Notes: generated by a model from the sequence alone, not told the origin. Numbered from the stretch's first letter, positions 5,835 to 9,940 are shown. The stretch: 64,000 bases of DNA from an uncultured Planctomycetia bacterium (GCA_964430735.1 CAYSFB010000010.1:5239-69238); one strand, 5' to 3'. Numbers and translations: made by a program.

Positions 5835-7283
5835 TTAGTTCCAGGGTGCGGTGATCAGATTTTTTTGTTCCCACAGCACGGGCATCACCGTGCGGACCGA
5901 GTGCGCAGCCGACGCGGCCAGGATCAGCGCGACGATTCCGACGGACAGGAAACGGTGCGCCATGATCCCGGACAGGCGGCGCTCCAGACGGACGATCATC
6001 CAGCCGGACAGGGCCGCCAGCGCTGGATAAATCATGTGCAAATACCGATACTCACCGGTCCGATGAGTTAAAAAATACCCGGCTCCGAAGGTGATCCAGC
6101 ACCATAAGAACACCGGGCGGTCATCGAACGGCTTTTGACTCCAAGCGGCAAGGCCATTTTTCAACCCGTCCTTGACCGTGAGGTAAGCTGCGGCAAAAGC
6201 CCAGCAAATCGCAACCGTACCAACTGAATAATATATTACTCCATGAGGCTGACTCAAAAGCACCTGATACCAATCCCCGATATTGGCGAAACCTCCGACA
6301 GATGCAATCTCGCGCCCCTTCAACATCCGATCTGTGATCACGGGCTGCGCCAGAGGGTTCCCGTAACAACTGTACATGGTCCAAAACCAGTGGGCCGTCA
6401 TCGCAGCGGCGGTAGCGGCAAATGCCCACCACCGTCTGTCCGCGAGCATGCGAACCCAGGATTTTTTCTCCGCACGCATCATCAACATAGAATAAAATGC
6501 AAGCGCGCCGGCCGCCAATAGTGACTTTTGACTGGTCAGCACCGATCCTCCGTAAAGCACCCCGGCCGCCCCGCATAACCACCACCGACCTGATTTGAAG
6601 CCCGCCCGATAAAGAATCATCGCCGGCAAAAGCAGTAGAAGAGCCAAGTCTTCCGTCCACACGCGGTACGACGTTAAAATCGAAACAGGATTAGTCGCAA
6701 AAATAAAGGCGGCCACCAGCGCCGCCACATTCCCGAATAAAGCTCGGGTCCAGAAAAAAATCAGCGTTAAAATCAAAAGACTGGACGCAAAAGGAATGAT
6801 CGCAGCCCAGAATTGGGCTTTGAGCAGAATCGCAGGCCTGGTGTCCAGGACCTCCTTTCCAAGGTTGCTTTTTACGACCGCAAACGTCCGATCGGCCGAA
6901 CCAAAAATTCTTTGGGACAAAGCAAGCGCCTGCGGCAGCATCGGGGATTTATAAAAAATCGGAGTATCGTAATACGCCAGTCCGTTCTCATAATAAGTGT
7001 CCAGGACAAATCCGCGCTGCCCCTCTACCCGGTAGGGATAGATAATTTCGGCTGGCGGACGGCCGTCAATACGAAGAACTTCCGTATTAATCCCTTTAAG
7101 ATTGTAGTCTTCGTATCCGGCCGCGCGACTCGTCTGCAGCTTCATCGCGAGCATGACGTACTGGCTCTGGTCGCCCTGCCAGTGCGGCAGCCAGAACGTG
7201 AACTGGCGGACGTAGAACGCGCCGGCGAAGATGAGGGCGAAGAGCAGCGCCGAGCCGATCGTTTTGTTTTTCAGGTCGATCAT
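5835..7283 (-). CDS. ArnT/PMT-like GT-C membrane glycosyltransferase (paralog A)
   Basis: 482 aa multi-pass. Loop 1 after TM1 reads LPHWQGDQSQYVMLAMKL. This aligns with the ArnT [16 protein letters not shown] acidic loop. Confidence 0.6.
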   Translation of the reverse strand: MIDLKNKTIGSALLFALIFAGAFYVRQFTFWLPHWQGDQSQYVMLAMKLQTSRAAGYEDYNLKGINTEVLRIDGRPPAEIIYPYRVEGQRGFVLDTYYENGLAYYDTPIFYKSPMLPQALALSQRIFGSADRTFAVVKSNLGKEVLDTRPAILLKAQFWAAIIPFASSLLILTLIFFWTRALFGNVAALVAAFIFATNPVSILTSYRVWTEDLALLLLLPAMILYRAGFKSGRWWLCGAAGVLYGGSVLTSQKSLLAAGALAFYSMLMMRAEKKSWVRMLADRRWWAFAATAAAMTAHWFWTMYSCYGNPLAQPVITDRMLKGREIASVGGFANIGDWYQVLLSQPHGVIYYSVGTVAICWAFAAAYLTVKDGLKNGLAAWSQKPFDDRPVFLWCWITFGAGYFLTHRTGEYRYLHMIYPALAALSGWMIVRLERRLSGIMAHRFLSVGIVALILAASAAHSVRTVMPVLWEQKNLITAPWN

Positions 7284-7298
7284 CGTTGGGGTCCGTCG

Positions 7299-8760
7299 TT
7301 AAAAAAGCATTTGGTCGGCAAAAATCTTGGGGTACGCGAGCCAGGCCCCCCAAGCGGCGCAGGCCAGGGCTATTAAGCCGATTATCATGCCACCGGCCCG
7401 GCGGTTTTGTAAAAATCTTTCGAGACCGACCGCGGCGAGGATCGCCAGGGCCGGGTAGGCGGGATAAAAGTAACGGTGCTCCTGGTTGCCGGTGATGAAA
7501 AGGTTGTTCAGATTCGCGATGCAGAGAAAAAATACCGAGGGCCAGATCCAGAGCAGAACCAGGCTCCTGGTCCGGGAGTCCTTCAGGCGGCCGATGATGC
7601 CGGACCACGCTTGATTCCAAGTTGCGGCCGCAAAGCCAAACAACGGGCACAGAAAAACCGCGCCGAGAGAAAAAAGGATCGAAGGGTGAGGCCGCGAATG
7701 CACGGCCGCGAACCAGCCCGTCACGTCGCTCCCGAGGGCCGTCGTCATCCCCTGGACAGGCTGATACAGCGGATGCCCATACGTTTGGATCACTTTCCAG
7801 AACCAGAAGCCGGTCACCGCCAGAAAAGCGGCGCCGAGCAGCCAGAAGAAGGGATCCAAAATAATTTTGATCGTCCGGGATACGACGCCGGCCGCGCGGC
7901 CGGTTTTGCGGCCGTCGTCCCCGTCCTGCCAGAGGCACAGCGCGGCAAATCCTCCCAAGGCGGGCAGAATAAGACCGGTTCTTTGGTTGACCAGGACCGC
8001 CGCTCCGGCCATTGCGCCCGCGGCGAGGCCTGCCAGGGCGCGGTTCCGCTTCCACAGCAGCGCCAGCGACGCAACCGAGGCCGTCACAAAAAATGCGGCC
8101 GTGTCTTCAGTCAGGATCTTGTGGGCCAGCCAAATCGAAACGGGGTTCACCGCCAGAACGGCCGCACTCAGAACCGTGATTGGACGCGAGCCGAAAAGAA
8201 GCCACGCCAATACGGCGGTCAAAAAAATGAGGCTTAGGTTGAAGGTCAAAGGAACCAGCGCGGCCCACAGTTGATGACGCCAGATTTTCCAGGACTCGGC
8301 TGCATGCGCGAACGTCTTCGGGCCGTAGGAGAGCACTGCGAATACCGGAGTGTCGGTCTTTTGACCGAAGGCGGTCGATCCGACGAATATTTTGTGCGAA
8401 AGAGCGAGGATCGCCGGATACAGCGGCGCGCGCACGTGGAGCGGTTCGTCGTAATAGGATTGGCCGATGCTTTTCATGAGCGCCAGATAAGCTCCGGGCG
8501 AGTCGTCGGCGCCAGGCTTCACCGCATTGAACTCCATATGATTCTCTTTGGACGGACTCACGTCCAAGCGGCCCAGCGACACCGAGCGGAGGTTGTAACC
8601 GTCGAGTCCGGCATGCGAGAGCTTCATCGCCAGAATCACATACTGCGCCTGATCCCCCCGCCAATGCGGAAGCCATAACGCGCAGATCCGCAGCCCCAGC
8701 GCCGCCAGCAACACGAGCAACACGGCTGCGATCGGGAAGCGGCTCACGCTATTCTCCATT
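7299..8760 (-). CDS. ArnT/PMT-like GT-C membrane glycosyltransferase (paralog B)
   Basis: Carries the same loop-1 motif, LPHWRGDQAQYVILAMKL. The track ORF (to 8819) begins at a TTG. An internal ATG (MENSVSRFPIAAVLL) at about 8760 gives an N-terminus matching paralog A and a 16-nt overlap with the next gene. Confidence 0.55.
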
Positions 8761-9940
8761 TCCGCGCGGCCAAAAGCGCGGCGAACGGCAGTATCGGCGC
8801 GATCGCCCGGGCGTCCCAAACCGCTTCACGGCTGATCAGCCAGCGCGAAACGGCAAAACTCAGGATCAGAAGCCACAAAATGCCGACGTTCATCCCCTCC
8901 CGCTCGTCCGCGCGTGCGGACCGGTAGTTCTTTAAAAAAATTCCGGTCGAGAGAAGCGCGGCGGCCGGGACAAAACAAAGCATCGCCGCTTCGACCGGTA
9001 CGGGCAGCACGCCCGGCAACAGCCCCGCGGACACAGACGCGGAAACGTCGGAGAGCTGAACCACGGAGGCCTTCAGAGCCGCGTGCGCATAGTCGGGCCA
9101 GACTTTGTAAATCACCGCCGCGCCGGCGGCAAAAGCGAGGCAATAACCGTTGAGGGGTTTGGGATGCGCCCAAAAAGCCCAGACGGCGAAGGCGGGCAGA
9201 AACAAGAACGCGGACGCATCGGTCAAAGCCGCGATCCCCCAGCAGGCGCCGGCCAAAAGACAGCCGGCGGCGTTACGGTTCGAGATGAAGCGATGAAAAA
9301 GAACGACGGCGGCCAGGATCAGCGCGGACAGAGTCGCCTCAGGCCAAATCCGCGTGGAAATCAGAATGTGCGCCGGAACCAGCGCCACAAGCGCCGCGGC
9401 CAGAATCCCCGAAGCCGGGCCGAACATCCGCCATCCGGCGATCAGCGTCAGGAGAACGGCGGCCAAGCCGGAAACGAACGGGACCAGAACCGCCCATCCC
9501 TGCATCTGCAGAACGGCCCGGGAAGGCTGCGCCTTTTCGCCGGCCGAAGGTTCGGCGGCGCTGAGCGGATAAAACGGGAAGCGGGGGCCAAGCGTCTGAT
9601 GGTGAGTGTAAGCCAGCAGTGAGGGAAAAAACGGCGCCTTTAATTGGAAGGGGTTGGAATCCTGGACGGGCCAAACATCGAAGGAGGCGGGGGCGGCCGG
9701 ATCCGCCGTGACGGGCGAAGCGACCGGCAGAAGACGGCCGGATCCGCCGATTTCCGCGACTTCGCTGCGCCGCACTTCGGCGCCCGAGGGATGGTATCCG
9801 CTCAGACCCGGATGGGTTCCCATCTTCATCGCGAGCGTCGCGTAAGCGAGCTCGACTGGATCGGTGTGCGGAGCCCAAAACGCGCCGATCCTCAACAGCG
9901 CCGCCAGCGCGAGAATTCCGGCGGCCAGGATTACGCGCAT
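8744..9940 (-). CDS. ArnT/PMT-like GT-C paralog C with a degenerate loop-1 motif
   Basis: The track ORF 8744..10561 is over-extended across the upstream MTase gene. The internal ATG at 9940 (MRVILAAGILALAALLRIGAFWAPHTDPVELAYATLAMKM) gives a 399-aa paralog. The motif is degenerate, with HTDP in place of HWxGDQ. Confidence 0.5.
   Translation of the reverse strand: MRVILAAGILALAALLRIGAFWAPHTDPVELAYATLAMKMGTHPGLSGYHPSGAEVRRSEVAEIGGSGRLLPVASPVTADPAAPASFDVWPVQDSNPFQLKAPFFPSLLAYTHHQTLGPRFPFYPLSAAEPSAGEKAQPSRAVLQMQGWAVLVPFVSGLAAVLLTLIAGWRMFGPASGILAAALVALVPAHILISTRIWPEATLSALILAAVVLFHRFISNRNAAGCLLAGACWGIAALTDASAFLFLPAFAVWAFWAHPKPLNGYCLAFAAGAAVIYKVWPDYAHAALKASVVQLSDVSASVSAGLLPGVLPVPVEAAMLCFVPAAALLSTGIFLKNYRSARADEREGMNVGILWLLILSFAVSRWLISREAVWDARAIAPILPFAALLAARKWRIA

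Follow-up and report, generated by a model that had tools for sequence, protein, structure and literature searches.

A tandem triplet of GT-C glycosyltransferase paralogs with a conserved third member that lacks the motif Asp

What does a bacterium do with three membrane glycosyltransferase paralogs in a row, and is the odd third copy a relic or a working part? The question is raised by a locus from an uncultured Planctomycetia bacterium (GCA_964430735.1, CAYSFB010000010.1:5239-69238), analysed as one 64,000-nucleotide stretch that we call the window. Three consecutive minus-strand open reading frames (ORFs) lie there head to tail in the transcription order C-B-A. They fill exactly the span, 5835-9940, in which an initial annotation had recognized a tandem triplet of ArnT/PMT-like paralogs:

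8744-9940, minus strand: gene C, GT-C paralog of an Asp-less clade, 398 amino acids, ATG at 9940
7299-8759, minus strand: gene B, GT-C paralog, 486 amino acids from the ATG at 8759
5835-7283, minus strand: gene A, GT-C paralog, 482 amino acids

Our reading, to which we assign a probability of roughly three in four, is that A, B, and C are polyprenyl-phosphate-sugar-dependent GT-C(A) transferases that make up the periplasmic arm of a glycosylation module of the three-component type. The triplet most likely decorates a cell-surface glycan from the periplasmic side. Attention had been drawn to an Asp-Gln pair in A and B at the place where ArnT and PMT enzymes carry Asp-Glu. Asp-Gln becomes ordinary once the family is seen; the better point is a conserved third paralog that has no Asp at all.

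Paralogy, fold and family of the triplet

The 3' end of C overlaps the start of B by 16 nucleotides (nt), and the start of C overlaps the stop of an upstream methyltransferase gene by 10 nt. B and A are separated by 15 nt, and A lies 1 nt from the next gene, which encodes a GT2 glycosyltransferase. The open frame of B extends to a TTG at 8819; the protein recorded in the database is exactly the 486-residue form. A and B are 30% identical over their full length (E 4e-41), and A-C and B-C are each 27% identical over the N-terminal ~250 amino acids (E 2e-13 and 2e-15, respectively). These alignments place the paralogy well beyond chance. C is 84-88 amino acids shorter than A and B, slightly under the 90-100 first estimated. 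Distant loci, L009-L012 in our numbering, carry an A-like gene followed by a B-like gene and no C. From these pairs it follows that the A/B duplication is old and that the C slot is specific to one clade.

AlphaFold2 (AF2) models of A and C were built from alignments of 33-34 sequences. The model of A has a predicted local distance difference test score (pLDDT) of 93.4 and a predicted TM-score (pTM) of 0.93; that of C has a pLDDT of 85.8, with lower confidence in residues 290-340. In Foldseek searches of the PDB, the best matches of both models were exclusively GT-C enzymes (probability 1.00, TM about 0.5). Specifically, A matched STT3, AglB, ArnT (5EZM/5F15), Pmt4, ALG9, and AftB, and the matches of C include AglB, ArnT, and Pmt4. 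ALG12, AftA, and the Emb proteins were also among the matches. The models and matches show the GT-C(A) fold, which is made up of the first seven transmembrane (TM) helices plus two loop-1 helices.

Profile comparison leads to the same enzymes. Using hhalign, the family alignment (A4) matched an ArnT-family alignment (A6) with 98.5% probability (E 2e-15, 247 columns), with A residues 162-428 falling on ArnT 85-334. The ArnT set consisted of nine proteins from plasmid and chromid records: ArnT of Escherichia coli, Klebsiella, Pantoea, and Providencia, together with GT39/83-annotated proteins of Cupriavidus, Ralstonia, Variovorax, Alteromonas, and Acinetobacter. This result shows relatedness, not orthology; against the single E. 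coli ArnT sequence, hhalign gave just 3% probability. C scores above the Pfam gathering thresholds for PMT (PF02366, 29.1 vs 22.7) and PMT_2 (PF13231, 27.8 vs 26.1), and some homologues are annotated GT39. Searches of PDB sequences with phmmer, using A and C, gave nothing relevant, and the whole-family profile found nothing there either; the family is too distant from solved GT-Cs for plain sequence search. Taken with the Foldseek matches, the profiles mark A, B, and C as genuine relatives of ArnT-type GT-C enzymes, and the ArnT/PMT-like label holds. Our literature searches returned nothing on the GT-C subfamily to which A, B, and C belong, nor on Asp-less GT-C paralogs or GT-C pseudoenzymes.

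The loop-1 motif and the third copy

The motif in question lies in loop 1 of each protein (translations):

7140-7193, minus strand: loop-1 motif of A, WLPHWQGDQSQYVMLAMK; D38 at 7170-7172
8619-8675, minus strand: loop-1 motif of B, WLPHWRGDQAQYVILAMKL; D36 and Q37, with D36 invariant in the B family
9821-9877, minus strand: loop-1 motif of C, WAPHTDPVELAYATLAMKM; V29 at the Asp column and E30 at the Gln column

Just past TM1, A and B read WLPHW(Q/R)GDQ(S/A)QYV(M/I)LAMK. C has equal spacing, with no gap relative to A and B, so both the motif and the spacing read as first described. The motif is almost invariant in homologues down to 33% identity and in ~100 representative clusters, and thus is not a chance similarity of two genes. 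The Asp (D38 in A, D36 in B) is invariant in 28 of 28 aligned A- and B-family sequences.

In the AF2 model of A, TM1 spans residues 2-30, a short linker runs from W31 to G37, and the next helix, 38-51, begins at D38, where pLDDT is about 94-95. Short Lys/Arg-rich loops of A (232-233 and 272-282) lie on the membrane side opposite loop 1, a placement in the model that fits an N-in topology and a periplasmic loop 1. The motif had been proposed to occupy the DExRYAE site of ArnT. An N-terminal hhalign alignment, weak by itself, agrees: A 32-52 (LPHWQGDQSQYVMLAMKLQTS) falls on E. coli ArnT 25-45, pairing D38 with D31, Q39 with E32, and Y42 with Y35. This alignment is colinear with the strong downstream ArnT match. 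FYKSP stands opposite FEKP in its low-confidence extended (mact 0.05) and global versions. Placement on the ArnT Asp is further supported by the published Asp of juxtamembrane helix 1 (JM1), the conserved Tyr and Lys positions, the start of a helix at D38 after TM1, and family members that have Glu in the next column. All GT-C(A) enzymes are described as having an essential Asp "at the tip of JM helix 1" (PMC12041299; also PMC11127046), and Y43 (RYA) and K69 (YFEKP) are essential in ArnT (PMC5377068). The ArnT-equivalent Tyr (Y42 in A) and Lys/Arg-x-Pro (K112-S-P114 in A) are kept in A, B, and C. Relative to ArnT, the Arg of RYA, the Glu of FEKP, and the Glu of DE (Gln in A and B) are not retained.

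A canonical DE pair elsewhere in these proteins would have undercut that placement, and one does occur, in B only. It belongs to a loop-1 stretch at B residues 102-112 (~8424-8456, minus strand), G-Q-x-Y-Y-D-E-P-L-H-x-R-A-P, which is invariant in the B family. Its Asp-Glu (YYDEP) lies six residues ahead of the Arg-Ala-Pro, is B-specific, and is not aligned to the DE of ArnT. The corresponding residues are YYDTP in A and D-S-N-P in C.

Is Asp-Gln a rarity? When all 1.84 billion representatives were searched exhaustively with a profile, 163 clusters came up at E <= 1e-30, 499 at E <= 1e-10, and 10,320 at E <= 1e-3. The two key columns, read from 146 full-length top matches aligned to the family model, are distributed as follows:

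DQ: 94 of 146
DE: 25 of 146
VE: 8 of 146
DS: 6 of 146
EE: 2 of 146
SE, GQ, DP, and EQ: 1 of 146 each
gapped: 7 of 146

By neighbor-joining (NJ) ordering, DE and DQ are intermingled among the family's more distant members, whereas the A and B clades have DQ throughout. A distant relative of B (P0034) reads PHTSGDEVHF. Given this variation, the Asp is the constrained residue, and the following position can take Glu, Gln, or Ser. Mutagenesis of Streptomyces coelicolor Pmt agrees with a free second residue: the D113A variant is inactive and E114A complements fully (PMC8698208). D55 mutants of Cupriavidus metallidurans ArnT are inactive (PMC8698208). By family comparison and by analogy with Pmt, we regard Asp-Gln as a mild variant, a subfamily signature compatible with activity and not a mark of altered catalysis. 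The pair is real; the weight first placed on it was too great. More distinctive of the family are an invariant Pro-His 2-4 residues ahead of the Asp and the neighboring Trp and Gly. The resulting signature is P-H-W-x-G-D-Q-x-x-Y, and the 163 clusters at E <= 1e-30 come from metagenomes and from metagenome-assembled genomes (MAGs) labelled Omnitrophota or Planctomycetia.

A natural substitution of the Asp itself was also seen. In L009 (4018-5460) and L010 (3984-5426), Planctomycetia MAG loci with the A-like/B-like pair only, the B-like copy reads WLPHWQGEQKHY, with Glu replacing the catalytic Asp, an exchange by which ArnT and S. coelicolor Pmt are inactivated.

C departs from the GT-C(A) pattern at this very residue: the column of the motif Asp holds Val29 in five of five aligned orthologues. 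The C-type clade (VE, SE, PEE, GGQ; ~11 representative clusters) is the sole part of the family without the Asp in the NJ tree. The orthologues hold their own form of the motif, PH-x-x-P-V-E-x-A-Y (PHWHASE in L004). Glu30 is invariant in the VE-type orthologues, and the nearby D27 is not conserved (D, R, or H). The C family has 80 invariant columns, with orthologue identities of 45-74%. C keeps 33 of the 63 columns that are >=85% conserved across the A and B families, among them (A numbering) R26, P33, H34, Y42, L45-K48, Y60, P114, P117, H124, Q157, W159, P164, P199, E211, G241, W299, R413, and P420. Lost are W35, G37, D38 (to Val), Q39 (to Glu), Q41, D212, E411/Y414/Y419, and the motif after TM7 (WF...YGxP..QP...W). 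The losses are concentrated in the Asp motif and external loop 4 (EL4).

Intact C ORFs of 388-410 amino acids were read in six contigs (the window, L003, L004, L005, L024, and L025), and further clusters contain C-type proteins of about 350-450 amino acids. The order C-B-A, with a methyltransferase gene ahead of C and a GT2 gene after A, recurs in the window/L001, L003, L004, L005, L024, and L025, which come from different metagenomes and Omnitrophota/Planctomycetia-labelled MAGs. Between the window and L024, identity is 73% for C, 76% for B, and 61% for A. The ratios of nonsynonymous to synonymous substitution (dN/dS) against L024, L025, and L003 are 0.18-0.32 for C, 0.17-0.22 for A, and 0.14-0.29 for B, approximate values with dS near saturation.

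What, then, is C? The third copy had been called degenerate, and C is indeed shorter than its neighbors, lacks the Asp, and has weaker model confidence at 290-340. That it is a decaying duplicate, a pseudogene in the making, is nonetheless very improbable: the ORF is intact in six contigs with 80 invariant columns, and C is better conserved against L024 than A is (73% vs 61%). Given the same operon slot in at least six contigs, its own conserved motif, and a dN/dS of about 0.2 like that of A and B, C is an old paralog maintained by selection, and we reject the pseudogene reading on conservation and dN/dS. Judged by its sequence, C is plausibly altered in catalysis, with neither an Asp at the head of the first helix nor the EL4 motif, and the analogous D-to-A mutants of ArnT, Pmt, and AftB lead us to expect it to be impaired. 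It is likewise plausible that substrate specificity diverged once the genes had duplicated. Most likely, C is either a non-catalytic lipid- or acceptor-binding partner of A/B or an enzyme of changed chemistry that uses Glu30, and we weight the two roughly equally. The partner version, which we hold only tentatively, makes C a dead-enzyme subunit of an obligate hetero-oligomer with A and/or B, one that would serve lipid or acceptor binding or stability and perform no catalysis. The Asp that ArnT, Pmt, and AftB cannot do without (PMC8698208, PMC12041299) is missing from C, as is the EL4 motif; C retains the ArnT-equivalent Tyr and Lys positions and is under purifying selection. It always lies beside A and B in the order C-B-A, and the overlapping stop and start codons suggest coupled translation. 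PMTs and Emb proteins, moreover, function as dimers (PMC12705809, PMC7305291), as in Pmt1-Pmt2 and EmbA-EmbB. Yet the distant L009-L012 manage with an A-like and B-like pair alone, and the invariant Glu30 beside the lost Asp could still be catalytic. More speculatively, the whole C-type clade may comprise conserved Asp-less GT-C pseudo-glycosyltransferases, each an obligate non-catalytic partner that presents the acceptor or lipid or stabilizes the complex; our literature searches turned up no report of such a "dead paralog" subunit in a GT-C enzyme. The other version is likewise tentative: A, B, and C could each be independently active, using the same or two lipid-linked sugars at three positions or in three successive steps, in the manner of ALG3/9/12 or the mycobacterial Aft/Emb enzymes, with C working through Glu30. 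GT-C paralog series with one common donor are known (PMC13503287, PMC12041299), the window genome has two GT2 donor synthases, and an acid occupies the Glu30 position in the SE and PEE relatives as well as in VE-type C. The D113N variant of S. coelicolor Pmt retains activity, from which it follows that not every such enzyme needs a strict base (PMC8698208). However, changing the motif Asp to Glu inactivates ArnT and S. coelicolor Pmt (PMC8698208), and C has lost the EL4 motif and ~85 residues of a variable module besides.

Gene neighborhood and proposed pathway

The genes around the triplet indicate what A, B, and C may act on:

3279-4223, minus strand: ArnC/GtrB-like polyprenyl-phosphate GT2, 314 amino acids, presumed maker of the lipid-linked donor
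4230-5201, minus strand: short-chain dehydrogenase/reductase (SDR) sugar epimerase/reductase (Pfam Epimerase, E 1.6e-20); gene callers start ~21 codons later (302 amino acids)
5123-5833, minus strand: short second GT2, 236 amino acids, DPM1/PpgS-like (Pfam Glycos_transf_2, E 1.4e-26)
9931-10719, minus strand: S-adenosylmethionine (SAM) methyltransferase, 262 amino acids, directly upstream of the GT-C genes (Pfam)
18126-19139, minus strand: LPG_synthase_TM membrane protein (Pfam PF03706, E 1.4e-11), a candidate flippase by inference only

The 314-residue GT2 and E. coli ArnC share 37% identity from end to end (E 7e-72); on the NCBIfam ArnC model the GT2 scores 242 bits, below the equivalog cut-off of 529. 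In L003, L004, L005, L011, and L012, the GT-C genes are followed directly by an ArnC-like GT2; in the window, L024, L025, L008, and L014, one lies nearby. The same GT2 accompanies the C-less pairs of L009-L012. The small GT2, found in the window, L001, and L024, is optional, as is the SDR; both are missing from L003 and L025. By synteny, the methyltransferase is always directly upstream, as in L003, L005, L011, L024, and L025. An LPG_synthase_TM domain protein also occurs in the L003 and L024 clusters; in L012 there is no more than a weak match of 50 bits, and the ORF concerned overlaps the stronger GT4 match. Upstream of the triplet, the operon runs on for ~13 kb, with genes for methyltransferases, two GT4 enzymes, the LPG_synthase_TM protein, a radical SAM/SPASM protein, a DegT aminotransferase, an AsnB-type amidotransferase, a 4,6-dehydratase, and WbqC. 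We read the locus as a surface-glycan cluster, one arm of which serves decoration in the periplasm.

Other features of the cluster deserve mention. The radical SAM/SPASM protein, the AsnB-type amidotransferase, and two class I methyltransferases of the operon (13079-17001, minus strand), found also in L001 and L025, suggest an unusually modified sugar that is amidated and/or C-methylated. A 480-residue multi-pass membrane protein without a Pfam match (19057-20499, minus strand) has an 83-nt overlap with the start of the LPG_synthase_TM gene, and in L003 a 570-residue protein, also without Pfam matches, adjoins that locus's LPG_synthase_TM gene. We considered the 480-residue ORF as a fourth GT-C paralog and rejected it because its hidden Markov model (HMM) scores are negative; it could supply the flippase, polymerase, or ligase that the pathway lacks. 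In L016 (C. metallidurans CH34 plasmid pMOL30, 171004-174300), a class I SAM methyltransferase, a GT39-annotated GT-C, GtrA, and a GT2 stand together. This order resembles the methyltransferase/GT-C/GT2 arrangement here and hints that ArnT-like modules recurrently have a methyltransferase as partner. The glycan operon is preceded immediately upstream by WbqC-like and SRAP (SOS-response-associated peptidase) genes (23306-24733, minus strand), of which the SRAP gene looks unrelated to the operon.

On the other flank, 0-4 kb downstream of the ArnC-like GT2, is a module resembling a type II secretion system (T2SS; 753-3266 in the window, minus strand). It comprises a 57-residue single-TM protein, a protein of ~180-197 residues with a weak T2SS-C match, a 539-residue secretin, and a tetratricopeptide repeat (TPR) protein. 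A secretin follows within a few kb of the GT-C genes in L003, L004, L005, L010, L011, L012, L024, and L025, usually just beyond the ArnC-like GT2; in L010, no such GT2 was found downstream. The association holds even at ~30% GT-C protein identity. T2SS secretins are reported to be needed for secretion of exopolysaccharide slime (PMC12475490), and a functional tie between the T2SS-like module and the glycan cluster is possible.

Most related loci have an ArnC-like GT2 beside the GT-C genes, and this association points to a three-component-type periplasmic module. We infer the donor, acceptor, flipping, and activity of each copy as follows. The ArnC-like GT2 (3279-4223), here joined by the small GT2, would put a sugar on undecaprenyl phosphate at the cytoplasmic face. 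The lipid-linked sugar would then be flipped, with the LPG_synthase_TM protein as candidate flippase. Subsequently, A and B would pass the sugar to a periplasmic acceptor, most likely a glycan or lipopolysaccharide (LPS) made by the rest of the 20-kb sugar cluster. Catalysis would depend on the Asp that heads the first loop-1 helix (D38 in A, D36 in B), with help from the Tyr (Y42 in A), the Lys/Arg-x-Pro (K112 in A, matching the Lys of ArnT YFEKP), and Glu211 (matching E. coli ArnT D135). A and B would thus be active inverting-type GT-C transferases that act through the JM1 Asp.

Several points weigh against this reading. The PMT_2 scores of A (20.7) and B (15.5) are under the 26.1 cut-off, and none of the NCBIfam models matches A, B, or C. 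The N-terminal profile alignment that sets the motif on the ArnT site has an E-value of 0.0023 and a probability of 12.7%. With dS near saturation, the dN/dS values are rough, and the activity of Pmt D113N means that an absent carboxylate is no proof that C is inactive. Next to the GT-C genes, we found no GtrA, ArnE/F, or MATE flippase. Finally, the donor sugar and the acceptor are guesses from context.

Two more specific functions can be weighed against a general glycan-decorating module, and we consider both unlikely. In one, the locus is a true ArnT-type system for attaching an amino sugar to the phosphates of lipid A. It would account for the resemblance of the GT2 to ArnC (37% identity), the DegT aminotransferase and dehydratase of the cluster, and the standing of ArnT as the closest family by sequence profile. 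Yet A, B, and C finish after the last TM helix and have no ArnT C-terminal periplasmic domain, equivalents of ArnA, ArnD, and ArnE/F are absent next to the genes, and the GT2 reaches 242 bits where the ArnC equivalog cut-off demands 529. Loop 1 is also at odds with that function, at ~120 residues with a beta-hairpin vs ~55 in ArnT. In the other, A, B, and C are protein O-glycosyltransferases of the bacterial PMT-like kind, perhaps acting on components or cargo of the neighboring secretin system. The Pfam PMT matches, the GT39 label of some homologues, and a T2SS-like GspC/secretin pair in the neighborhood of at least eight loci speak for this possibility; the lack of a MIR domain, the loss of the PMT-invariant DE, the profile match to ArnT-type proteins, and the polysaccharide-like cluster speak against it. 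We favor periplasmic decoration of a surface glycan.

Comparison with known systems

Where does the triplet stand among characterized GT-C systems? The nearest known family is ArnT by sequence and GT39/PMT_2 by database name. ArnT (GT83; the lipid A 4-amino-4-deoxy-L-arabinose transferase, 5EZM/5F15) shares the GT-C(A) fold and the TM-core profile match. It also shares the post-TM1 Asp followed by x-x-x-Tyr (DETRY in ArnT, DQSQY here), the Lys-Pro motif that closes loop 1 (FEKP in ArnT; YKSP, VRAP, and LKAP here), an acidic residue where TM3/4 reaches the periplasm (E211 here, D135 in E. coli), and an ArnC-like GT2 next door. In contrast to ArnT, the triplet has Gln for Glu after the Asp and an added invariant Pro-His-Trp before it, and its loop 1, ~120 residues with a predicted beta-hairpin, is about double in length. 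Three tandem paralogs replace a single gene, and ArnA, ArnD, ArnE, and ArnF are missing. ArnT has a C-terminal periplasmic domain of ~120 amino acids with a required acidic residue (PMC5377068), whereas A stops 11 residues past its last helix and the hhalign match stops at ArnT ~334 of 550.

The PMT family (GT39; Pmt1-Pmt2, Pmt4, bacterial Pmt) has in common with the triplet the GT-C fold, an acidic loop-1 motif, and weak Pfam PMT/PMT_2 matches, and the dimers in which PMT paralogs act together set a precedent for a module of several paralogs. The DE motif of loop 1 is described as invariant in PMTs (PMC12705809, PMC8698208); A and B have DQ and C has VE instead. Unlike eukaryotic PMTs, A, B, and C have no MIR domain (Pfam), and the loop after TM7 measures 40 residues in A and 24 in C. 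The context here, a polysaccharide cluster with an undecaprenyl-phosphate GT2, also differs.

Three-component systems (GtrA/GtrB/Gtr*, GT136) combine a lipid-phosphate sugar synthase, a flippase, and a GT-C, and elaborate versions with multiple GT-Cs are mentioned (PMC11127046). As in those systems, a GT2 synthase stands beside the GT-C genes in a glycan cluster. The differences are that there is no recognizable adjacent GtrA or MATE flippase and that the GT-C component is a fixed triplet, one member of which lacks the catalytic Asp, outside the characterized Gtr* and GT136 families. The GT-C series ALG3/9/12 and EmbA/B/C with AftA-D offer a further likeness, as diverged paralogs that build one growing glycan from one lipid-linked donor. 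The catalytic Asp is present in all of ALG, Emb, and Aft (PMC12041299), whereas here it is missing from one conserved paralog.

These comparisons leave the understanding of GT-C enzymes in general unchanged. What they add is an uncharacterized GT-C subfamily with the signature P-H-W-x-G-D-Q-x-x-Y, natural variation in which the second residue of "DE" may be Gln, Glu, or Ser, and a conserved paralog clade without the Asp held to be essential in every GT-C(A), yet selected in a fixed three-gene module. C is thus a clean test case for a GT-C that works without the Asp or serves as a non-catalytic partner. Because it lacks the C-terminal domain and the full DExRYA/YFEKP motifs of ArnT as well as the invariant DE and the MIR domain of PMTs, the triplet would best be filed as neither ArnT nor PMT, but as an uncharacterized GT-C(A) subfamily that acts like the GT-C arm of a three-component system.

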